DNA from: Chryseolinea sp.
GTDB taxonomy: Bacteria > Bacteroidota > Bacteroidia > Cytophagales > Cyclobacteriaceae
Length of the DNA stretch: 64,000 nt
NCBI GenBank assembly: GCA_035489615.1
Contig: DATHKA010000522.1
Location: 2,420 to 66,419, forward strand
Direction: 5' to 3'
Below the pieces are notes generated by a model. It was not told where the DNA came from, ran no database searches, and worked only from the letters and a program-made list of their open reading frames with translations. Position 1 is the first letter of the stretch, and the number at the start of each line of letters is the position of its first letter. The translations under genes and the position numbers were made by a program. Shown here piece after piece: positions 305 to 64,000 of this stretch.

Positions 305-2782
305 TTACTCATATTTGAGCGCCTTAACCGGACTTTCCAATGTCCTCCTGAGGCTGATAATGATCACCACGGTCAAGGTTACTACGAATAGGATCAATAC
401 GGGCAGCCCGACTACCTGCCATCCAACGCCAACAGCATTGGCAAATTGGCTGAGCCATTGCTGTCCTCCAAAAAAAATCACGGGAACAGCTACAACATAT
501 GTGCCCATGAGAATGCGAATAAGGTCGTGGGAAAATAAATACAAAATACGTATAACTGGTGCGCCGAGCACTTTTCGTATCCCGATCTCCTTGGTGCGTT
601 GTGACACTGTAAAGACGGTGAGACCTATTAACCCAAGGCATGTGATTACGATCGCAAGGCCGGTGAAAATTCCGACAAGTTGTCCAAGCTTTTTGTCGGC
701 TTGGTATTGCTGGTTATAGTAGTCGTTGAGTCGATAGCTCACAAACGGATTGTCAGGAAAAATATTTTTAAAAATGTCGCGTGTCAGGGAGAGATTGGCC
801 GCTGAATTTTTATTTGTCATACGGAGAGAAAAATATTTCCAGGTCGTCCACTGGGGTTGCATATAGGCGATGGCCTCGAATGGATCTTTCAATGACAACT
901 GATGGTGATCATTCACAATTCCGATGATCTCGGCGTTCCGTTCATCAGGTCCCCACCAAAACCTTACTTTCTCGTTCAAGGCCGTTTGGGGAGTAAGCCC
1001 CATCCGGCGCACGAACTCCTGGTTAACCACTAAACGGATCATCTCCGCTTCTGGTGCCCTCCGGAAATTCATTGTCTCATGGTCGGTAAATTTTCTTCCT
1101 TCTATCAATCGAATCCCATAGGTGCTGAAGAAACTGGTATCGACACCAAGCATGGCAGATCCAAACGCTTCATCGTTGTTACCACCCATACGGGAAATGC
1201 CGGTCGTTTCGATGATGGGTTGGCCGGGAATGTTGGCCGAAGAGGTCATGTTTACGATCCCAGGAGCTTCGAGCAGTGATTTCTTTAGAAAATTAATCTT
1301 GCTGTTGGTAGCAGAGTCATACACGGCGGGACCCTCTACGACCACGATTTCATCCTTTGTGTATCCGGTATCCTGCGACTGCAGAAAAGATAACTGTTGA
1401 TATAAGAGCACCGTTCCGGCGATCAGCAACAAGGCGACAAAATACTGGAAAGATATCATGGCCTTGCGTGCCGTTGCCCCCGATGACGATTTCAGGAATT
1501 TTCCTTTGAGCACTATGGCGGGGTTGAAAGACGACAACAACAATGCCGGATAGCCACCAATAACCACAACACCTGTCATGAGTGAAAGCATGACTACGCA
1601 CACGACCGTTGGAGAGGAAAATAATACCAGCGGCATCTGTTTACCAACGAGGTGCTGAAACGCAGGCCATAATGCCGTAACCAGACAGCCAGCTATCAGG
1701 GCAGAGATTGAGTTAACCACCAATGCATCCATTAGAAACTGGAGCACCAGTTGTTGGCGCGTTGCGCCAACAACTTTACGCAGTCCCACCTCTTTTGAGC
1801 GATCCAGTGCCTTAGCTGTGGAAAGGTTAATATAGTTGACCCACGCGATGAACAAAATCAGAACTGCTAACAGGGTAAGAAAATAGGTTGTCCGGGTATC
1901 ACTAACCGGTGATTGTTCATTGTTAAGCCCCGAGCGTAGGTGGATGTCACCGACAGGTTGAAGCGCGAACCGCGTATGATACTCCTGGTAGTCCGCAAAC
2001 TCGGGTGCACGCTTCTTCAGGAACGTGTTGATCTTGATGTCAAACGCAGCTGGATCACTGCCGGGAGCAAGCTCAAGATAAGTATAGAATACGGACCAGC
2101 CCCAAAAATTGTCACCGTCAAATGTGCTGCCGGTAGTTGAATACGAGAGTAATATGTCAAATTTAAGATGTGAGTTTTCCGGTATGTTTTTCAGCACGCC
2201 GGTGACGATCATGCTTACTTCGCGGTTAAGCGATAGTGATTTTCCCAGTGCTGGTTCGTCACCAAAGTATTTGCGGGCAACGGACTCTGTAATAACAATC
2301 GAGTTTGGTTCTTTCAATGCGGTTTCGGCATTACCCGATAACAAAGGGAAGTCAAACATATCGAGAAACCGTGCGTCGGCGAAGTAGACATACTCTTCGT
2401 TGAAAGCTACCAGCGAGCTTTCTAACGGGCGCGAAAATTCAAGCGCATTCGTAACGCTCTTGGTCAATGACGACGTAAAAAGGGATGACTTTACAAGTCT
2501 TGCATAGTTGAGCACTTCAGGAAATTCCTGTTTCAACGCGGGACCTGCGGCGGAGGTATTGGATGCATTACCACCGTTAACCGATTCCCCTTTAAAGTAT
2601 TTCAGCGATACCCGGTAGAGCCGTTTGTTTTGAAAGTCGTCATATCCGGATTCGAACTGCACGTATTGATATAATAGAAAAGCGGCAGCAATGGCGATCG
2701 CGAATCCGCATACCGTAATCAGAGAGAAAACCTTGTTACGCAACATGGTGCGTATGGTTACGAGAAAATAGTTCCTGATCAT
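305..2782 (-). CDS. ABC transporter permease (MacB/FtsX duplicated, Bacteroidota type)
   Basis: 825-aa ORF. Starts MIRNYF..R...RNK.FS.I; carries AWVNYINLSTA..R.KEVG.RKV.GA and QRTKEIGIRKVLGA motifs; ends SPVKALKYE. Confidence 0.93.
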   Translation of the reverse strand: MIRNYFLVTIRTMLRNKVFSLITVCGFAIAIAAAFLLYQYVQFESGYDDFQNKRLYRVSLKYFKGESVNGGNASNTSAAGPALKQEFPEVLNYARLVKSSLFTSSLTKSVTNALEFSRPLESSLVAFNEEYVYFADARFLDMFDFPLLSGNAETALKEPNSIVITESVARKYFGDEPALGKSLSLNREVSMIVTGVLKNIPENSHLKFDILLSYSTTGSTFDGDNFWGWSVFYTYLELAPGSDPAAFDIKINTFLKKRAPEFADYQEYHTRFALQPVGDIHLRSGLNNEQSPVSDTRTTYFLTLLAVLILFIAWVNYINLSTAKALDRSKEVGLRKVVGATRQQLVLQFLMDALVVNSISALIAGCLVTALWPAFQHLVGKQMPLVLFSSPTVVCVVMLSLMTGVVVIGGYPALLLSSFNPAIVLKGKFLKSSSGATARKAMISFQYFVALLLIAGTVLLYQQLSFLQSQDTGYTKDEIVVVEGPAVYDSATNSKINFLKKSLLEAPGIVNMTSSANIPGQPIIETTGISRMGGNNDEAFGSAMLGVDTSFFSTYGIRLIEGRKFTDHETMNFRRAPEAEMIRLVVNQEFVRRMGLTPQTALNEKVRFWWGPDERNAEIIGIVNDHHQLSLKDPFEAIAYMQPQWTTWKYFSLRMTNKNSAANLSLTRDIFKNIFPDNPFVSYRLNDYYNQQYQADKKLGQLVGIFTGLAIVITCLGLIGLTVFTVSQRTKEIGIRKVLGAPVIRILYLFSHDLIRILMGTYVVAVPVIFFGGQQWLSQFANAVGVGWQVVGLPVLILFVVTLTVVIIISLRRTLESPVKALKYE

Positions 2783-3156
2783 GGCGGTGGTTTTTGGTGA
2801 TGAGGTTGTATTTAAATAGTCTGTGTTTTGGGCGATTGGAGAGCTCCTCGTTTCTTTTGTGTCTTCACAGTGTCGTACACGCGCCTCAGTTCCTCATCAT
2901 GGTCATAAAGAGCATTGTACTGTTCAAGATTGGTGCCATACTTAAACGGCCACATGGCGCTAAAAACTCAATCGATTTATTCATTATGGTTCGGATACGA
3001 ACAAACTCGTCCGCGTTCGGTCAATGACTCTAGTCATGGCTCTACAAGACTTGGCAAGCGGTAAAAATCCAAGAGCTATCAGGGAGGCGTAGATTCGAAC
3101 CTGACAACGTCAAAAACGCAATGAGTGATTCGATTGAACGACCAGTAGGCGGAACG

Positions 3157-3546
3157 TTAAAGTGCCGACTTCGATACGATTCGTTTTACCATGTGCACAA
3201 GCGGAACATAGTCCTTTAGTGAGACAGGCTTGCAATAGAAATAGCTGCATCCCAGATCAAAACAACGTGCCTCGTCATTCTTGCTGGATGACGCTGTTAA
3301 TATAATGACCGGGATATCTTTGAGTGTTGGATGAGTCTTGATTTCCTGCAGTGTTTCAAATCCGTTTTTAACAGGCATATTTAAGTCCATCACAATTACA
3401 TCAGGAGTCGCTTTAGGTTTGACCAATTTCTCCAAGAGTACGCGACCATTATTGGCAGTGTCCACGGGCCCCTTATAACTGTGAATAGAAAGCGCCTCTC
3501 TTACGAAAGCAATATCATCTTCGTCATCATCAACCAGAAATACCAT
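3157..3546 (-). CDS. Single-domain response regulator (receiver)
   Basis: LVDDDEDD, DVIVMDLNMP, ILTAS and KP receiver motifs. Start placed at ATG 3546 because the ORF-track start (3606) leaves only 2 bp to the divergent gene. Confidence 0.88.
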   Translation of the reverse strand: MVFLVDDDEDDIAFVREALSIHSYKGPVDTANNGRVLLEKLVKPKATPDVIVMDLNMPVKNGFETLQEIKTHPTLKDIPVIILTASSSKNDEARCFDLGCSYFYCKPVSLKDYVPLVHMVKRIVSKSAL

Positions 3547-3608
3547 TTCTTCAGACGTTTCATGCAAAATAGCTAATTTAGTAGGAAGTATAGGACCTAA
3601 TTCCACCT

Positions 3609-4418
3609 ATGGACATAAGGAAGAGAAATAATGTGAAGATACTGGGAAATGGCTCTACGCCAATGGTGTTTGCTCACGGTTTCGGCTGCGATCAAAACAT
3701 GTGGCGGTTTATATCTCCTGCTTTCGAACAAGCCTATAAAATAGTTTTGTTTGACTATGTAGGCGCAGGAAGGTCTGACGTCGGTGCGTACAACGAGGAG
3801 AGGTATTCCAACTTGAATGGCTATGCGCAAGATGTATTAGAGATTTGCCACGAACTTGATCTTAAGAATATAATATTTATCGGACACTCTGTTAGCAGTA
3901 TGATTGGTTTGCTTGCTGCAATAAAGGAGCCCGGACGCTTCGATTGTCTGGTAATGATTGGGCCCTCGCCGTGTTACATTAACGACATTGGATATAAGGG
4001 CGGATTCGAACGAAGAGATATCGAGGAGCTTTTGGAGACGATGGACAAAAATTACATCGGATGGGCCAATTTCCTTGCGCCAGCGATCATGAAAAATCCT
4101 GATCGCCCGGAGCTTGGTCAGGAGTTGACAGCAAGTTTTTGCTCCACTGATCCCAAAATTGCGAAGCAGTTCGCCAAGGCTACTTTCTTTTCAGACAACA
4201 GGCGTGATCTATCTAAAGTCACCATACCTTCCTTGATTATGCAGTGTTCGGATGATATTATAGCTCCGTATGAGGTCGGGGATTATCTTTACGCAAATCT
4301 GCCGATCAGTACATTGAGAGTTTTGAAGGCGACGGGTCATTGCCCACACATGAGCGAGCCTGAAGAAACAATTGAAGTCATCCGACAATATCTTCAAGAT
4401 AAAGCAGTCGCAAGTTGA
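3609..4418 (+). CDS. rsbQ: RsbQ/KAI2-like alpha/beta hydrolase
   Basis: FAHGFGCDQNMWR, LFDYVG, GHSVS nucleophile elbow, GPSPCYIND and GHCPH; typical RsbQ signature. Confidence 0.9.
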   Translation: MDIRKRNNVKILGNGSTPMVFAHGFGCDQNMWRFISPAFEQAYKIVLFDYVGAGRSDVGAYNEERYSNLNGYAQDVLEICHELDLKNIIFIGHSVSSMIGLLAAIKEPGRFDCLVMIGPSPCYINDIGYKGGFERRDIEELLETMDKNYIGWANFLAPAIMKNPDRPELGQELTASFCSTDPKIAKQFAKATFFSDNRRDLSKVTIPSLIMQCSDDIIAPYEVGDYLYANLPISTLRVLKATGHCPHMSEPEETIEVIRQYLQDKAVAS

Positions 4419-5639
4419 ATGAGTAACTGGCTAGACGTCGCACCATGCGGTTATTTATCATTCAAGGATGACGGATCGATCATATATTTGAATCAAACCT
4501 TATCAGGATGGCTTGGATATAGCACAGCCGAACTGCTGGGCACAAAGGTGGAGCATATTTTTACCGTGGCTACGCGAATCTTCCACAATACGCACTTTTT
4601 TCCCCTGCTGAAATTGCATGCAAAAGCCGAAGAGATTTTCTTATCACTTCGTGCAAAAAATGAAGACAATATTCCCGTATTGGCTAGCGCAGAAAGACGT
4701 GTGGAGGATGGCATGGCTATCAACCATTGCGTCTTCATCGCAATATTTCAACGCCAGAAGTATGAAGAAGAAATTCTAGCTGCCAGACGTGAAGCAGAAA
4801 AGGCGTTGAAGGAAAACAAATACCTTGAAGAACTAAGGAACTCGCTGGAAATACACACGCTGGAATTGGAACAACAATATCAGAAACAGCTGGTTCAACA
4901 TAAAAATCTAACGCAATTCAACAAGATTGTCTCACATGATTTACAGGAACCGATTCGTAAAATATTGCTATTTTCTGACATACTGATCAATGATTTGGGC
5001 GCCACCCTTAACGAGAAAAATTTAACAACCATCTCAAGGATCAAAGACGCCTCGACGAGGTTGAGGGGACTCACAACCGGATTACAGCAATACCTCACGG
5101 TTGACGCTGATCAAATGGATACGGATGTAGATCTCAATGCTGTTCTGGAAACGGCAAAAAAGAGAGTCATTGATGGCCGGCACCTGCAGGAATTGGACCT
5201 GGTTTACAAAAAAATGCCAGTGATTCGTGGTTATCGGGCGCAACTTGAATTGCTGTTTTACCATCTGTTTGACAATGCCGTTCAATTTGCTGATCCGATT
5301 CGATCCTTGCGGATTAACATCACTTGGGTATTAAGCGACGAGAATATTTACAAGATGGAAAAGAATAAATACTTGTTCGTCGAGCACCTTCGATTGACTG
5401 TATCTGACAATGGGATAGGTTTTGAAAATGAGTATAAGGAATACGTAACCGGACTTTTGAATAAGCTTAACCCATCCACAGAGGGCTTAGGTATTGGTTT
5501 ATCTATCATTACAAAGGTCATAGATAATCACAGTGGCACTTTGTACATCGAATCGAAGAGAAATACGGGTACGTCGTTTTCCCTGCTGATCCCAACAAAG
5601 ATTCATAGCCGGCCAGACCGCACGGGCAGTGCGTCGTAG
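4419..5639 (+). CDS. PAS-domain sensor histidine kinase
   Basis: N-terminal RsbP-like PAS (APCGYL..D.G.I...N.TL..WLGY), H-box SHDLQEPIRK, N-box DNA, G1 DNGIG, G2 GLGIGL. Start abuts the rsbQ stop (TGA ATG). Confidence 0.92.
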   Translation: MSNWLDVAPCGYLSFKDDGSIIYLNQTLSGWLGYSTAELLGTKVEHIFTVATRIFHNTHFFPLLKLHAKAEEIFLSLRAKNEDNIPVLASAERRVEDGMAINHCVFIAIFQRQKYEEEILAARREAEKALKENKYLEELRNSLEIHTLELEQQYQKQLVQHKNLTQFNKIVSHDLQEPIRKILLFSDILINDLGATLNEKNLTTISRIKDASTRLRGLTTGLQQYLTVDADQMDTDVDLNAVLETAKKRVIDGRHLQELDLVYKKMPVIRGYRAQLELLFYHLFDNAVQFADPIRSLRINITWVLSDENIYKMEKNKYLFVEHLRLTVSDNGIGFENEYKEYVTGLLNKLNPSTEGLGIGLSIITKVIDNHSGTLYIESKRNTGTSFSLLIPTKIHSRPDRTGSAS

Positions 5640-9709: not shown

Positions 9710-9755
9710 GAAATTGTCGATGCTAAGGCTCGAACAAGGTCTCACACCAAGGTAG

Positions 9756-11114
9756 TCAGGGTCTGATGATCGTCCCATCGCGCTTGCGGACCTGCCAGTT
9801 TGATTTACTCGAAATCGGGTACTTAGCTGCCTCTTTTTCGTTGATGTCTACGCCCAGTCCCGGCACTTCATTAACTGACATGTAACCGTTGTTCATCGTC
9901 GGACATCCACTGAACACTTCGAGCATTTTGTCGGAGAAACTCACCGCCTCCTGAATACCGAAGTTCCAGACTGCAAGATCAATATGTGCGTGGGCGGCGT
10001 GGCCAACGGGCGAAACATCTCCAGGTCCGTGGAATGCCGTTCTGATATTGAACCATTCGCCCAGGCGCGCAATCTTCATGGCCGGCGTGATTCCGCCGAT
10101 CTGCGAAACGTGAACCCTGATGAAATCGAACCACTGGTTAACCATCGGCATTTTAAATTCGTTGATGTTGTTGAACAATTCACCCATCGCAATAGGCACT
10201 GAGGTACTTGCCCGCAGCTGCTTGAACCATTCCATATTTTCGGGCGAGAATGGATCCTCGACAAAGAATGGATGAAATTCATCCAGTTTCTTGATCATGT
10301 TGATGGCGTCCATCGGTTGTACGCGCTCGTGAATATCATGCAGCAATTCAATCTCATCACCGCATTGTTTGCGAACCATTTCAAACATTTTAGGCACGGA
10401 CTTCAAATACATCTGCTCATTCATGTAGTTGTCTGTTTCGTAGCCATATCCGGCTTTTTTGAAATCCGGCTGTTCATTGAGACTGCCCACTGCCCCATAG
10501 CCTCCCTGTTGAATGCGTATGTACTTGAATCCGCGTTCCATAATTTTTTTGACGTCTTCGGCAACCGCTTCCGGGGAGTTACCTCCTGCGTGTGTATAAC
10601 ACGGTACGGCAAAACGTGATTTGCCACCCAGTAATTGATACACTGGCATGTTCGCACGCTTGCCTTTAATATCCCACAGCGCCTCGTCCAGGCCGCTAAG
10701 CGCATTATTCAGAACAGGGCCGTTACGCCAGTACGAACTCACGTATGCGGAATTCCACATGTCTTCGATGTTGTCAACATCTTTGCCGACGCAGAATTCG
10801 TTGAGATACGTATTGACCGCTGTTACAACAGAAAACGCCCGCTGCGTAAATGTCGCACAACCCAATCCATAGAGGCCAGGCTCAGATGTCTCAACTTTCA
10901 CCACAATCAGGTTGGAACCCTGTGGCGCCGTGGCAATCGCCTTCACACTTTTTATCTTTACGGGCGGCAACCCTTTCGCATAGGCTGGCTTGCTGTCGCG
11001 CGCTTCTGCGTTTGTCCCGGAAATCAGACTCAATACGCCGGCAGCAGACGTCGCTCCAATTGTTTTCAGTAAGTCACGGCGACCAGCCATGAATCGATTG
11101 TCATTTTTATTCAT
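9756..11114 (-). CDS. Enolase-superfamily acid-sugar dehydratase (ManD/RspA subgroup) with Tat signal
   Basis: SYWRNGPV, LWDIKGK, LLHDIHER, EDP, GELFN and FHGPGDVSPVG motifs; N-terminal RRDLLK plus hydrophobic stretch and AEA cleavage site. Confidence 0.88.
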   Translation of the reverse strand: MNKNDNRFMAGRRDLLKTIGATSAAGVLSLISGTNAEARDSKPAYAKGLPPVKIKSVKAIATAPQGSNLIVVKVETSEPGLYGLGCATFTQRAFSVVTAVNTYLNEFCVGKDVDNIEDMWNSAYVSSYWRNGPVLNNALSGLDEALWDIKGKRANMPVYQLLGGKSRFAVPCYTHAGGNSPEAVAEDVKKIMERGFKYIRIQQGGYGAVGSLNEQPDFKKAGYGYETDNYMNEQMYLKSVPKMFEMVRKQCGDEIELLHDIHERVQPMDAINMIKKLDEFHPFFVEDPFSPENMEWFKQLRASTSVPIAMGELFNNINEFKMPMVNQWFDFIRVHVSQIGGITPAMKIARLGEWFNIRTAFHGPGDVSPVGHAAHAHIDLAVWNFGIQEAVSFSDKMLEVFSGCPTMNNGYMSVNEVPGLGVDINEKEAAKYPISSKSNWQVRKRDGTIIRP

Positions 11115-58230: not shown

Positions 58231-58306
58231 CCGGTTAGGCTTCGAAAACAACATGGATAAATTGGAAGAGAGGATGGACAATTTTTCAAGTAAGGTCACG
58301 GCTAAC

Positions 58307-59275
58307 CTATAAAGAAGTTCCATGCGGCAGCAAGGCTTCCCGACCTGAGCCCACTGTATCCCGGTAAATTTGAGGGGAAATGTCTGCTCTTTTTTTGAAA
58401 AAACGACTGAAATAATATTCGTCAGAAAAACCGAGTTTATAGGCAATCTCTTTTACGGGTTTTGAGGTCAGATACAACTCACGCTTTGCCTCAATCATTA
58501 TCCGTTCGCCAATCAGATCAGTCAAGGTTTTATCCAAATATTTTTTTGTTAATCTCGCCAGTGCTTTTGCAGGAATCCCAAGTAAATCTGAATATTCACT
58601 GGTAGCATGTTGTTTTCGGAAATTTTCTTCAATGGCATCTACAAGATGCTGCAATCTGGCTGCATCCATATTTTTTGTTAGCATATCTTTCACATGATCC
58701 TGCTCACGATTCTTAATCCGGATAGCATTGATAAGAATAATCTTCAGATGAAGGATAAGAAGCTCTTGTTGCGCAATTTCCTTTTTCTGTAGCTCCACCC
58801 TAATCTTTGATGCGAATTGTAAAATCTCTTCGCACTCTTCGAGAGTGATCGGAAAAAAAGGTGAATGATATGCGTTGTTAAAAAGTGCACCATTACTCGC
58901 CACTTCATTCTGGTGCCGGAAAATGCAGAAAAAATCAGGGTGAAAGTGGATAACCGTACCATGCAAGTCCGTTGCATTCTTAATCGCAAAAGGTTGATAT
59001 GGTGAAAAAAAACAAAGCCCATCTGCCGAAAATGTAGCTGTTGAAAAGTTGGAATTTAGCATCCCACTACCTTTTGTAATGATCAATACCGTATAATAAT
59101 TGTTGTGCTGAAGCGAGGTAAAAGGATTTGAATTTTCGAAAGACTTAATTGCAAACGCAAGATTGCCAGTATTCTTATCTGTTAACGTAAGATTGTTTTC
59201 TTCGTCATTTCGTAGGAAATGGATTGTTGCTGTCTGCACCGGCCTGTCTATCATGGGATTAGGTTTTGATATCAT
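58307..59275 (-). CDS. AraC-family transcriptional regulator
   Basis: FHPDFFCI..H..EV..NG.LFNN; C-terminal KEIAYKLGFSDEYYFSRFFKK. Confidence 0.93.
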   Translation of the reverse strand: MISKPNPMIDRPVQTATIHFLRNDEENNLTLTDKNTGNLAFAIKSFENSNPFTSLQHNNYYTVLIITKGSGMLNSNFSTATFSADGLCFFSPYQPFAIKNATDLHGTVIHFHPDFFCIFRHQNEVASNGALFNNAYHSPFFPITLEECEEILQFASKIRVELQKKEIAQQELLILHLKIILINAIRIKNREQDHVKDMLTKNMDAARLQHLVDAIEENFRKQHATSEYSDLLGIPAKALARLTKKYLDKTLTDLIGERIMIEAKRELYLTSKPVKEIAYKLGFSDEYYFSRFFKKRADISPQIYRDTVGSGREALLPHGTSL

Positions 59276-59321
59276 CCTACAAAAGATAATAATAAATCCT
59301 TAAAACCCGCAATACAATGGA

Positions 59322-60176
59322 TTAATCAGTCTTGGAAATGGATAAATCTGCAACTACTGAAATGCCCGTCTTCTTTCTAAAAGTTTGTGGAGACACCTTC
59401 GTTACCTTTTTAAAAAAACGGCTGAAATAATGTTCGTCATCAAACTTCAATGCATGGGCAATGTGTTTCACGGTTTGCCTTGAAAGATGAAGCTTTTTTT
59501 TCGCTTCAAGCACAATCCGCTCACCGATTAGTTCAGAAGGTGTCTTACCGAAATAAACTCTACAACGCTTTGTAAGCGAATTAGGAGAAAGACCAAGAAG
59601 TTTAGCATAATCCGCAGGTTTTCTAATGGTAATGAAGTACTTGTCCAGCAGTTCGCGAAACAACTCCATCATTTCGTCGCGCTTCAAATTTCGCGTTCGC
59701 CTTTTCATTCGAACGCTGGCTGATTTGGCTAACAATAATTGAATAAGAGTGATCACAATCGAATCGAACGGCCTGGAAGCTGTTAACTCTTTATTAAGGT
59801 CAGCAAGAATACGACAGAAGTCAGCATGACTTTCCGGCATCAGCGGGATACAAGGATTACTATAAACATTATTGAATAAAATTCCATTGCAGCTTACTTC
59901 TTTCTTATGGTATTCAATGCAATAAAAATCTCCATGAAACTGCAATATCGATATTTCATGGAAGTGACCTTTTAGCTGGATGGTTTGAAGTGGAGTCGAA
60001 AACACAATGCAAGGACCCTTGGCATTAAAGGTCCCAAAGTCAGCCTTAAAGTCGCCAACACCATCTTTGATGACAAGAATGGTATACATGGCGAATTGCT
60101 TCGGGGCCGCGAGAATATTTTTACTATTCTGGGTTAGCTGTACTAACAGTTGACCATCCTTGGAAAGGTTAGGCAT
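59322..60176 (-). CDS. AraC-family transcriptional regulator
   Basis: FHGDFYCIEYHKKEVSCNG.LFNN; LKFDDEHYFSRFFKK. Confidence 0.93.
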   Translation of the reverse strand: MPNLSKDGQLLVQLTQNSKNILAAPKQFAMYTILVIKDGVGDFKADFGTFNAKGPCIVFSTPLQTIQLKGHFHEISILQFHGDFYCIEYHKKEVSCNGILFNNVYSNPCIPLMPESHADFCRILADLNKELTASRPFDSIVITLIQLLLAKSASVRMKRRTRNLKRDEMMELFRELLDKYFITIRKPADYAKLLGLSPNSLTKRCRVYFGKTPSELIGERIVLEAKKKLHLSRQTVKHIAHALKFDDEHYFSRFFKKVTKVSPQTFRKKTGISVVADLSISKTD

Positions 60177-60319
60177 GTTCAGGTATCTAAGGTCATTGGT
60201 TGAGAGCAAGACCACTGACTCTTACTGTCAGTATAGGTGGTAACTGACTAAGTAATCCTGAGGCCCCACGACGATTGCTTTGAGAGTAACTATTATCTAA
60301 AACCGCGAAATTTTTGCGA

Positions 60320-60622
60320 TCAGGGTTTTGACGCCAGGACATCAACAAATTCAATGACGGGATCCCTGGCAAGCAAGCGTTCGACATTGGTCAGTAATGC
60401 AGCAGCGACGTTTCCAGCCAGATGGGCTTTGCGTCCTGCATCATGTGGAAAGGTGTCAAAGATGCCAAAGGTAGACGGGCCCAGTTGAATACCATACCAT
60501 GTTGTGGTGTAAGGTTCACTTTGAACAATGGGTAAACCGCTCCGCAAGAAATCAGCTACTTCCTTTTCTTTTCCTGGCTTTGCTTCAAGCCTAACTAACA
60601 AGGCAACTTTTGTCATAAGCAT
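60320..60622 (-). CDS. Antibiotic-biosynthesis-monooxygenase-like (putative quinol monooxygenase) protein
   Basis: LLVRLEAKPGKE, TTTWY.IQLGPSTFGIFDTF, GRKAHL.G motifs. Confidence 0.85.
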   Translation of the reverse strand: MLMTKVALLVRLEAKPGKEKEVADFLRSGLPIVQSEPYTTTWYGIQLGPSTFGIFDTFPHDAGRKAHLAGNVAAALLTNVERLLARDPVIEFVDVLASKP

Positions 60623-61096
60623 TTTATTTGTTAATGGTTTTCTCTAAAGCAAAGGTTCAGAAATTCGAAGACATGCGGAATGGATGTTCATTACGATGAG
60701 ATGGATAATTTTACCAAACATATCTGCCGCCTGACTCATGCCTAACGTTTCCACCGCTAGCCTTAAAACGATTCAGATGGCGTAAAAATACTTGGATGAT
60801 AGGCACGTGTTGATTTGATCGCTGTTGGTAAAATAATCCATCACATACGTGTCAACATCCATTTTACAAATCTGATATGTTGCAAGGTTTTGCCGTTCGG
60901 CTTGTGGTACCAGCGTCATTGCACCAGGTCAATAGCAGATAGATGTGAGCCAATAAAGGTGGCCGAGCATAATGGTATGAGCACGTACAAAACCTTGCCC
61001 GACTATAATGCCAACCTGCATGGGTAGGACTTCATTTATAACTAAAATGCGCACTTTTTTTTGCCAGATGACAAATACCCAGAAAAAAATGATTAC

Positions 61097-61104
61097 TAAC
61101 TTTG
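61097..61104 (+). promoter_or_regulatory. Bacteroidota -7 box (TAACTTTG)
   Basis: Matches TAnnTTTG, 4 bp before the Crp start. Confidence 0.55.
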
Positions 61105-61108
61105 CACA

Positions 61109-61678
61109 ATGAATGAATTAATACACTACCTATTACAATTCGGACACTTGAATCAACAGCAGATTGAATTGATACAAAGTAAATTCCATCAAAAAGAAAT
61201 CGAAAAAGATACCTATTACCAAAAAGCGGGGCAAATTCCTAATGAATTCATCTTCATAACGGAAGGCGTAATGAGAGTATGTTATTACGATCACAATGGT
61301 GATGAAATTACCAAAGCGTTTGTTGATGAACACAAACTGGTTGCTGATATAGTAAATTATAACATTGGCTCACCTAGCACAGAATATATTCAAGCTATTA
61401 CTCACTGTAAATATCTAACAATTTCAAAGTCGGCGATGGAGGATCTTTCACAAACCGTCATTACCTGGGATGCCATTATCGCCAAGATAATCTCAAAAGG
61501 ACTCACACAAAAAGTTAACATATTTAGCCGTATGATGGCAGAAGATGCTACTGAACGTTATCAGAAATTTCTTATTCATTTTCCTAACATAGTCAATAGA
61601 ATTCCTCTTTCTTACGTAGCTTCTTTCTTAGGTATGACACAATCTTCATTAAGTAGAATAAGAAAAAATATCAGCTAA
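61109..61678 (+). CDS. Crp/Fnr-family regulator
   Basis: cNMP domain (FITEGVMR..Y...G.E.T..F) and HTH IPLSYVASFLGMTQSSLSRIR. Confidence 0.9.
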   Translation: MNELIHYLLQFGHLNQQQIELIQSKFHQKEIEKDTYYQKAGQIPNEFIFITEGVMRVCYYDHNGDEITKAFVDEHKLVADIVNYNIGSPSTEYIQAITHCKYLTISKSAMEDLSQTVITWDAIIAKIISKGLTQKVNIFSRMMAEDATERYQKFLIHFPNIVNRIPLSYVASFLGMTQSSLSRIRKNIS

Positions 61679-61757
61679 CTCACTTTTTGCCAAATGGCAA
61701 ATGATTTTTCTTTTAAACGTGCAACCTTTGCAATACATTTTTAAAAGAGAAAAAAAT

Positions 61758-62693
61758 ATGCCGACAATTTTCATTACAGGTGGACACAGTGGTATTGGTA
61801 TTGAGTGTTGCAAACTTCTTGCTTTAACATATCATTATAATTTGATTTTAGCTGGCCGCAGTCCTGAACGAATGGAAGCTTTCGCACAAGAATTAAGAAA
61901 TTCTTATGGTGTAAAAGTAAATCTACTTACAATGGACACATCGTCTTTGGCTTCTGTAAGGGCAGGTGTTGCACAATGTCGCAATATGCTTGATAATGGC
62001 GAAATTGATTCCTTGCAGGCAATTATTTGCAATGCAGGGGTTCGACTAAACGGGGCGGTTTCTTACACTGTAGATGGCTACGAGGAAACATTTGCCACCA
62101 ACTATTTAGGACACGTTCTATTAGTAGAATTACTTATTGACCGGGTAGCCAACAATGGACGAATTGTGTTTACCGCAAGCGGAACACACGACCCCGACGA
62201 AGCAGATGGAAAAATTATGGGTATTGCGGCAGAGTATGACGCAATAGAACTTGCTAATTCAGGTAAGGATGGTAAAAAACCACTTTCACCGGGTAAGTCA
62301 TATTCTACATCAAAACTGTGTATGATACTTAATGCCTATGAATTGGGTAGAAGATTAAAAAAGTCCGGCAGCTCTATTTCATCTATTGCTTATGATCCAG
62401 GTGCAACTTCAGGAACAGGTTTTTTAAGAAATATGCCAAAACCTCTTCAATGGCTTGCCAGTAGTGCATTGATGCATTGGGTGATGAAGCGAAATGGGGT
62501 GACTATGGGAGATATTGTTTTTTCGGGCAGATCCCTTGCTAAAGTTGCTGCAGATCCTGCTTATACAAACGCTTCAGGGAAATATTTCCAATCAAATAGT
62601 GGTAAATTGAATGAAAGGCGCTCTTCAAAATTATCGTACGACGAGAAAAGAGCATTGAAATTATGGAATGATACTAAAAAGCTTATCCAATGA
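61758..62693 (+). CDS. Short-chain dehydrogenase/reductase (retinol dehydrogenase/protochlorophyllide-reductase-like)
   Basis: ITGGHSGIG, ICNAG, FATNYLGH, YSTSK and DPG motifs. Confidence 0.9.
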   Translation: MPTIFITGGHSGIGIECCKLLALTYHYNLILAGRSPERMEAFAQELRNSYGVKVNLLTMDTSSLASVRAGVAQCRNMLDNGEIDSLQAIICNAGVRLNGAVSYTVDGYEETFATNYLGHVLLVELLIDRVANNGRIVFTASGTHDPDEADGKIMGIAAEYDAIELANSGKDGKKPLSPGKSYSTSKLCMILNAYELGRRLKKSGSSISSIAYDPGATSGTGFLRNMPKPLQWLASSALMHWVMKRNGVTMGDIVFSGRSLAKVAADPAYTNASGKYFQSNSGKLNERRSSKLSYDEKRALKLWNDTKKLIQ

Positions 62694-62700
62694 TTATTCA

Positions 62701-62784
62701 GATATTATGGAGCCTTATCGTCCGTTTGCAGATGCGTTGGTCTATGAAATTATACGGAATGGGGAAGACCATACTGAACTCAAT
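62701..62784 (+). pseudogene. cas1: cas1 internal fragment (type II-C, Bacteroidota-like)
   Basis: Translates DIMEPYRPFADALVYEIIRNGEDHTELN, matching the recalled Cas1 catalytic D-I-M-E-P-Y-R-P-x-x-D-x-L-V motif; no 5' part. Confidence 0.7.
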
Positions 62785-62817
62785 GCCTCTTCGGATGGTA
62801 TACCGAACATATCTTCA

Positions 62818-62853
62818 GTTGTCAAAGATCGTCTGTTGAAAGCAACTCACAAC
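62818..62853. CRISPR. Solitary 36-bp CRISPR-like repeat
   Basis: GTTGTCAAAGATCGTCTGTTGAAAGCAACTCACAAC, with GTTGT..ACAAC termini. The reverse complement GTTGTGAGTTGCTTTCA..ATCTTTGA resembles recalled Bacteroidota II-C repeats. Lies 33 bp from the cas1 fragment. Confidence 0.6.
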
Positions 62854-63062
62854 TCTATTAGCTTTTTCAGGAATAATAAAGGCAGGCTCAATTGTCTGAC
62901 ACGGCCTAATAGTCTTTATAAATGTAACTCACGCTTCCGTCCAAATTCGCTCACCTTCGTCCGCCTACGTGCAAATGCCCAATCGTCATCTCATCAAAGA
63001 CTACAAATTTACGACTTATCACCGGCACGAAGTTGGTAAGTCGAGTGTGTAATCTCTCCCTT

Positions 63063-64000
63063 ATGCTCAAATCCTACTTCATCGTTGCCCTGCGAAACTT
63101 ACTGAAAAGCAAAGTTTACTCTCTCATTAATATAACAGGACTTGCCATCGGATTGGCCTGTGCTCTGGCGATCGGAATTTTCCTCGCCGATGAGTTCAGT
63201 TATGACCGTTTTCATGATCGCGCCGATCACATCTACCGAGTTGTGCAAACACAGGACCAGAACGGCGAGTTGTACCAGGTTGCGTCCAGCCCTGCACCCA
63301 TGGCAGACGCACTCAGAGCCGACTTCAGCGAAGTGATCGGCTCCTGCCTCGTGGGTTACAATCGGACTGGCGTGTTGCAGGCAGGTGGAACGACGATAGA
63401 GGTACCGCATATAACCGTCGCTAATCAAGGATTTCTCGACGTGTTCGACTTCGAATTGATCCGTGGCAATGCAAACGAGCTGTTCACCGACCCGCGGCAG
63501 ATCGTGATCAGCGACAAAACAGCGGAGTCTCTGTTCGGTCGCGACTGGCGGAGCCGTCATGACATCCTGGGAAGCACGATCGCCGTCCAGAAGAACCGCG
63601 AATTCTCGCTGGCCGGCATTTTACGCGAAGCGCCGGAAAACTCACACATCCAGTACGACGCCATCCTCGCCTTCGATCCCGCAGGCGACGGAAACACTAA
63701 CTGGTTCAGCAACAACTACCACACCTATATTGAGCTAGCTGAAGGCGCTAGTACTTCAGATCTCAATGAAAAGCTAGCTACGTACATCGACAGATACTCT
63801 AACCCGACGACACGCACTTTCAAATCGCCTGCCTTCTACCTTCAACCACTCACGGACATTTACCTTCACTCCGATTTTGACTTTCATACAGACTGGACCA
63901 AAACGAGCAGTATAATATATGTGCGCGTGTTCCTGGCGGTAGGCGCTGTCGTGCTGCTCATTGCTATCTTCAACTTCATTAATCTCTCCACAGCACGTGC
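63063..64000 (+). CDS. ABC transporter permease (MacB/FtsX), partial, runs off the window end
   Basis: MLKSYFIVALRNLLKSKVYSLINITGLAIGLAC...DEFSYDRFH...IAIFNFINLSTAR; absent from the ORF track because no stop falls in the window. Confidence 0.9.
   Translation, partial: MLKSYFIVALRNLLKSKVYSLINITGLAIGLACALAIGIFLADEFSYDRFHDRADHIYRVVQTQDQNGELYQVASSPAPMADALRADFSEVIGSCLVGYNRTGVLQAGGTTIEVPHITVANQGFLDVFDFELIRGNANELFTDPRQIVISDKTAESLFGRDWRSRHDILGSTIAVQKNREFSLAGILREAPENSHIQYDAILAFDPAGDGNTNWFSNNYHTYIELAEGASTSDLNEKLATYIDRYSNPTTRTFKSPAFYLQPLTDIYLHSDFDFHTDWTKTSSIIYVRVFLAVGAVVLLIAIFNFINLSTAR

Follow-up and report, generated by a model that had tools for sequence, protein, structure and literature searches.

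A short site in the genome of Chryseolinea sp. is very probably a non-functional scar that several deletions left of a type II-C CRISPR-Cas locus. In the window, which is the whole 64,000-nt stretch of DNA analyzed here, an internal fragment of a type II-C cas1 gene (62688..62789, plus strand) is followed by one intact 36-nt type II-C CRISPR repeat (62818-62853, with the crRNA sense on the minus strand). Both the gene fragment and the repeat are homologous to intact II-C loci, and they have kept the native order and orientation. The genome lacks what makes up a functional type II-C system, namely cas9, full-length cas1 and cas2, a tracrRNA with an anti-repeat, and an array of at least two repeats. 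A decayed CRISPR-Cas remnant is an already known kind of object. Among the three readings offered by the initial annotation, that of a deletion scar of a II-C system is the one upheld here: intact loci of the same genus, with the order tracrRNA-cas9-cas1-cas2-leader-array, share the repeat and its orientation, and the junctions of the cas1 piece are abrupt.

The cas1 fragment and its junctions

The fragment corresponds to approximately codons 221-260 of a gene of about 310 codons. The surviving cas1 DNA comprises 102 nt (about 34 codons), with an internal deletion of 9 nt and a well-aligned core at 62701-62789. The frame at 62701-62781, which begins 7 bp past the stop codon (TGA, 62691-62693) of a gene for a short-chain-type (SDR-family) oxidoreductase, translates to DIMEPYRPFADALVYEIIRNGEDHTEL. 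This peptide is identical at 26/27 residues to Cas1 of the intact type II-C locus in the Bacteroidota MAG L018 and at 23/27 residues to Cas1 of the same-genus genome G029 (BLASTP, E 6e-16). The NCBIfam profile TIGR03639 (cas1_NMENI) matches the frame at profile positions 215-240 of 278 (E 8.9e-5, 21.9 bits), and Pfam Cas_Cas1 matches it at the corresponding profile position (E 0.078); these bit scores are far below whole-protein cut-offs only because 27-30 residues are left. The profile searches and the BLASTP match to G029 confirm the earlier assignment of this frame to Cas1. The initial annotation had also noticed an in-frame TRPNSLYKC at 62899-62925 and likened it to the Cas1 C-terminus. 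Its position and frame are correct, but none of the HMM, BLASTP and tblastn alignments reaches this patch, and at the DNA level it has no alignment with the 3' ends of cas1 genes; we therefore rejected SLYKC as a Cas1 C-terminus.

Compared with L018, the fragment agrees at 28/30 residues but at only 78% of nucleotides, with 16 synonymous versus 2 non-synonymous codon differences. Over 30 codons, it differs from the intact cas1 genes by 14-17 synonymous and 2-6 non-synonymous changes, and the same synonymous-heavy pattern is found among the intact cas1 genes themselves. The predominance of synonymous differences indicates that most of the divergence of the fragment accrued under purifying selection and that the gene was selected until recently. 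Judging from the codons, the truncation is recent relative to the split of these cas1 lineages, and the two private changes in the repeat fit this timing.

On the left, the fragment adjoins the SDR gene (61758..62693, plus strand, 311 aa; Pfam adh_short, E 3e-22). Eight of the nearest homologs of its product (76-83% identity) are 322 aa long and continue with ...LIHLQPNExSxKLR, whereas the window protein ends with ...KKLIQ and a stop, and is thus without the 11-residue C-terminal tail. DNA homology to the SDR genes stops at 62689, and cas1-like DNA begins at about 62688, where CAATGATTATT... resembles CAATCATTAC... of cas1, and a 9-nt gap precedes GATATTATGGAG. This upstream extension, with matches at 9/12 positions, is of marginal significance only; should it be genuine, the last SDR codon and the TGA stop would have been supplied by cas1-derived DNA. 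A few more distant members of the SDR family are likewise devoid of the tail, so the shortened enzyme may still work.

On the right, homology to four intact cas1 genes ends abruptly after ...AATGCCTC at 62789 in the DNA alignment. Between this break and the repeat lies a spacer-sized piece of 28 nt (62790..62817) that does not align to cas1. The distance from the end of the frame (...TEL) to the repeat, previously given as 33 bp, is 36 bp (62782-62817), of which the first 8 bp align to cas1 and leave these 28. The piece could be a former spacer or a remnant of the leader. Its scores against three leaders were within the spread of those given by 57 real spacers, 27-31 nt long, of related arrays. 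The initial annotation had suggested that the flanks of the repeat be compared with phage sequences; for both flanks, the protospacer search gave only chance-level matches in the own genome, in 50,697 phage records and in IMG/VR. Two candidate explanations of the join were rejected. An AACTCA microhomology between cas1 and the 3' end of the repeat is not the crossover point, as the cas1 homology runs 8 nt beyond it, and a self-targeting spacer that recombined with cas1 is incompatible with the lack of any match between the 28 nt and cas1.

The solitary repeat and its genomic setting

The repeat reads GTTGTCAAAGATCGTCTGTTGAAAGCAACTCACAAC on the plus strand and GTTGTGAGTTGCTTTCAACAGACGATCTTTGACAAC on the minus strand. 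The window contains it once, where none is expected by chance, and a search of the entire 6.83-Mb genome that allowed up to three mismatches gave no further copy. It is identical at 34/36 positions to the consensus shared by the arrays of G022, G025, G029 and L018, and has the same orientation relative to cas1 as in intact II-C loci. The one 36-bp repeat that had been pointed out earlier is thus a genuine single-copy CRISPR repeat, which matches arrays adjoining cas9-cas1-cas2 in relatives; its exact variant was not found among JGI metagenome contigs. We assign the crRNA strand from the anti-repeat of the G029 tracrRNA upstream of cas9 together with published II-C biology (PMC8092290). In type II-C arrays, promoters embedded in the repeats drive transcription toward the leader end, and a Bacteroidota -33/-7 promoter layout has been proposed for their repeats (PMC8092290; PMC10309648). 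The minus strand of the window repeat keeps a promoter-like motif, TTG-N19-GATCTTTG. As read from the sequence, both of its private substitutions fall outside the motif boxes; one of them, A29C on the plus strand, is at position 8 of the crRNA handle, a site that is invariant across all working arrays seen. The predicted RNA fold was no better than that of shuffled sequences on either strand, scans for sigma-70-type promoters and terminators stayed at chance level, and a search of Rfam gave nothing credible.

The repeat is followed by about 210 nt of non-coding unique DNA (62854..63062), which is AT-rich to about 62934 and extends to the start of an FtsX/MacB-type ABC transporter permease gene at 63063. 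This flank showed no tblastn match to Cas1 or Cas2 and no match to phage or IMG/VR sequences, and nothing upstream of 63063 resembled the prefix domain that the closest FtsX homolog carries. A candidate second, degenerate repeat at 62909-62932 (18/24 positions with one gap, the best local match) was rejected with a shuffle p of 0.13.

The partners of the cas1 fragment and the repeat were sought in the whole genome. Searches by tblastn with Cas9, Cas1 and Cas2 of G029 gave the cas1 fragment itself as the sole match (window 62701-62832, E 5e-10): Cas2 had no match, and the best alignment of Cas9 (1428 aa) covered 60 residues at E 0.017, which is not credible. The cas1_NMENI profile found no further match in the genome, and the general Pfam Cas1 profile found none genome-wide. 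A tracrRNA anti-repeat was sought by short-word BLAST with the repeat as the query, which returned only chance matches of at most 14 nt in the genome, and a k-mer scan of the assembly detected no CRISPR array. The earlier remark that the window contains no cas9, no cas2 and no second clear repeat accordingly holds, and it extends to the entire genome. Four apparent arrays, at C102:1-290, C407:1-160, C310:90-220 and C207:6540-6650, were rejected as tandem repeats with units of 62-70 bp and no unique spacers; three of the four are situated at contig ends. Since the genome contains no Cas9, tracrRNA, Cas1 or Cas2, the remnant should be able neither to acquire spacers nor to guide interference.

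The genome is a MAG of 6.83 Mb in 613 contigs (99.4% complete), and the site lies about 1.9 kb from a contig end. It is part of a lower-GC accessory tract (58250-62930). The GC content of this tract is 39%, a value also found in the intact cas operon of L018, whereas the genome as a whole has 49.5% and the permease gene 52%. On its minus strand, the tract carries two genes of the AraC family and an ORF of 100 aa; a Crp-like gene and the SDR gene follow on the plus strand, and then comes the relic. Around the relic lie AraC, Crp, SDR and FtsX genes, and the genes read at 58-64 kb included no hallmark of a phage or plasmid. Many different Bacteroidota settings contain the Crp-SDR pair as a two-gene cassette; in one of them (L025), an RteC gene is nearby. 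In the surroundings of the closest SDR homologs this pair was present in varied settings, and CRISPR was never adjacent. The right-hand neighbor of the scar, the 5' part of the permease gene (63063..64000, plus strand; Pfam MacB_PCD, E 1e-18), has a GC content normal for the genome. It has at least 57 paralogs in its own genome and its best same-genus match is only 61% identical, and for these reasons it is unusable for synteny. The permease family is greatly expanded, with similar copy numbers in many genomes of the genus.

Intact type II-C loci in relatives

A DNA search of 60 related genomes for the repeat and the cas1 piece revealed true arrays of this repeat, with a 66-bp period, in three genomes of the same genus (G022, G025 and G029), and the cas1 piece in G029. 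In G029 (contig C117), cas9 (1428 aa), cas1 (311 aa) and cas2 (109 aa) precede a leader of about 95 nt and the array, whose repeat GTTGTCAAAGATCGTTTGTTGAAAGCAAATCACAAC is on the same strand as the cas genes. The layout in G025 (C263) is the same, as is that in the Bacteroidota MAG L018 (JBBCII010000001.1), which has 47 repeats.

Upstream of cas9 in G029, an anti-repeat GAATTGAAAGCTTATCACAAT is found on the opposite strand, followed by AAGGCTATAAGCC, which we take to be nexus-like in view of what is generally known about type II tracrRNAs, and then by a hairpin plus U-run; this GC hairpin with its U-run looks like a terminator. These elements probably constitute the tracrRNA gene of the locus (L013, approximately 1700-1860, minus strand), and the anti-repeat pairs with the crRNA handle at 16/18 positions. 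The orientation of the anti-repeat indicates that the crRNA sense is opposite to the cas genes. The called GTG start of G029 cas9 overlaps the likely tracrRNA, and the true start is probably an ATG near 1893. In the otherwise intact L018 locus, cas9 consists of two overlapping ORFs (845 and 553 aa; 1119-5314), the result of either a frameshift or a long-read sequencing error. In G022, at the array end farthest from the expected cas side, 10 nt separate the last full repeat from an inverted partial repeat, CCGTTTGTTGAAAGCAAATCAAAAC (L015 5742-5764, corresponding to G022:C16 at about 9741-9763), which is not placed like the G029 tracrRNA; the partial and the full repeat together could form a 23-bp hairpin.

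The system is patchy in the genus. Of 40 genomes of the genus, two carry a complete type II cas1; G021 has a partial type II cas1 at a contig edge, and G022 has an array while type II cas1 was not detected in its assembly. In an even sample of 400 other genomes across the order, the repeat family was found in two, with 34 and 42 copies, and a single copy of the family is found only in the genome of the window. This distribution suggests that the II-C system has been gained and lost often.

Origin and significance of the remnant

The deletion-scar reading, which we regard as very probable, can be put as follows. A type II-C locus with tracrRNA, cas9, cas1, cas2, leader and array would once have been located between the Crp-SDR pair and the FtsX gene, and would have belonged either to this lineage or to whichever organism donated the low-GC tract. 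The reading calls for two or more illegitimate deletions. One would have joined the 3' end of the SDR gene to cas1 at about codon 221, removing the tracrRNA, cas9 and most of cas1; the other would have joined cas1 at about codon 260 to a point 28 nt before the repeat, removing cas2, the remaining 3' part of cas1, and the leader or the proximal array or both. Recombination between repeats, or a further deletion, would have cut the array down to one repeat. The homologies, the positions of the junctions, the missing partners and the identical sequence in a second assembly are observed directly, whereas the order and the mechanism of the deletions, like the lack of function, are what we infer from the remaining pieces. 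Because an intact locus at the same site was not found in any relative examined, the ancestral arrangement is likewise a reconstruction. It also counts against the deletion-scar reading that three breakpoints within about 170 nt make an unusually busy scar, and that the repeat is fully intact and has a promoter-like motif.

In a rival reading, the repeat has been kept for a function, as a Racr-like mimic RNA, as a crRNA-like regulator, or as an orphan promoter from which antisense transcription would cross the cas1 fragment and enter the SDR 3' end. The repeat is complete, TTG-N19-GATCTTTG on its minus strand fits the Bacteroidota -33/-7 layout firing toward the leader side with neither substitution inside the boxes, and solitary repeat units can serve as RNA anti-CRISPRs (PMC10651486). 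However, an RNA of this kind would have no Cas9, tracrRNA, Cas1 or Cas2 to work on in this genome, the fold is no better than that of shuffled sequences on both strands, and the arrangement was found only on contigs of the same organism. The repeat also adjoins a cas1 fragment in the native order and orientation, unlike solitary repeat units, and the genes read at 58-64 kb show no phage or plasmid hallmark. We therefore consider the retained functional solitary repeat of the initial annotation unlikely: the genome offers no usable Cas9, tracrRNA anti-repeat, Cas1 or Cas2, and the repeat sits where decay of a native locus would leave one.

The 28-nt piece invites another explanation, in which a CRISPR integrase or recombination at the repeat border made the join at a repeat-spacer border through ectopic integration, disintegration or long-fragment capture. 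The 62789/62790 junction is 28 nt from the repeat, and related spacers measure 27-31 nt. Yet a random breakpoint would fall within a nucleotide or two of such a border approximately 5-8% of the time, which makes the coincidence weak. Moreover, there is no repeat upstream of the 28 nt and no target duplication, cas1 sequence is not taken up again beyond the repeat, and the SDR/cas1 junction is unrelated to any repeat border. The proposal that a spacer and repeat were integrated ectopically into cas1 itself fails because cas1 does not resume past the repeat and the repeat is not duplicated. Border recombination is accordingly very unlikely. Just as improbable is that the site is a fossil of a CRISPR adaptation machine that rearranged and destroyed its own cas1 or, in a milder variant, that an orphan repeat promoter still fires antisense RNA into the truncated SDR gene.

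Least probable of all, to the point that we consider it excluded, is an assembly chimera, in which metagenomic reads of a CRISPR-bearing relative were mis-joined into the MAG contig near its end: the MAG has 613 contigs, the site is about 1.9 kb from a contig end and GC moves from about 39% to about 52% across it, but a Logan contig of 2,794 bp, built from the single run SRR7026570 and independent as an assembly although it may share its sample with the MAG, is 100% identical to window 62500-63300 (801 nt) across every junction, an ORF of 49 aa (62690-62836), which crosses both cas1 junctions and runs into the repeat, has been recorded as a predicted protein (JGI/Logan/ENA) on a 170,157-bp contig, and the 102-nt cas1 piece and the 28-nt piece are both shorter than a read, so that a mis-join would need shared k-mers at each joint, of which none is visible.

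As a deletion scar, the site resembles the type II-C loci of Bacteroidota, such as those of Flavobacterium columnare and F. psychrophilum and those described above in G029, G025 and L018, in having cas1 followed by the repeat in the same orientation and in the close match of its pieces to L018 (26/27 to 28/30 residues of Cas1) and to the array consensus (34/36 repeat positions). As in II-C repeats with embedded promoters, a TTG is found 33-35 nt before the spacer side (PMC8092290, PMC10309648). Unlike these loci, it keeps about 34 cas1 codons and one repeat, without cas9, cas2, tracrRNA or leader, and the repeat carries its two private substitutions, including A29C at a position that is invariant in working arrays. 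With degenerate or orphan CRISPR loci and cas pseudogenes it shares a patchy distribution in the genus, abrupt deletion junctions, the loss of partners and an accessory lower-GC tract, but it is more extreme than the usual orphan array, being reduced to a single repeat and a 102-nt gene fragment that supplies the stop codon of the SDR gene, if its marginal upstream extension is real.

Solitary repeat units (SRUs) and Racrs are marked, among other traits, by an isolated repeat that resembles a CRISPR repeat, and the window repeat, a single copy without an array, shares this trait (Camara-Wilpert et al. 2023, PMC10651486). A Racr is in addition a small RNA that has its own promoter and inhibits a cognate Cas complex. 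The window repeat differs from these elements in that it is chromosomal, has a cas1 fragment 28 nt away with the native order kept, and belongs to a genome without cognate Cas proteins; the published SRU search surveyed prophages, plasmids and viral genomes, and SRUs were described as unassociated with cas genes (PMC10651486). Screens of solitary repeats for RNA anti-CRISPR candidates will catch scars of this kind, and a cas fragment beside the repeat is a simple filter against them. The site records a type II-C system that was once held, and recently lost, by this lineage or by the donor of the low-GC tract, which fits the patchy distribution in the genus. Beyond its correct annotation, the scar matters little. 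Gene callers yield spurious ORFs across it: the 49-aa ORF, which has entered public protein collections, and a 123-aa frame (62668-63039), whose relatives among genome and metagenome contigs comprise only two intact cas1 genes, with no second copy of the relic.
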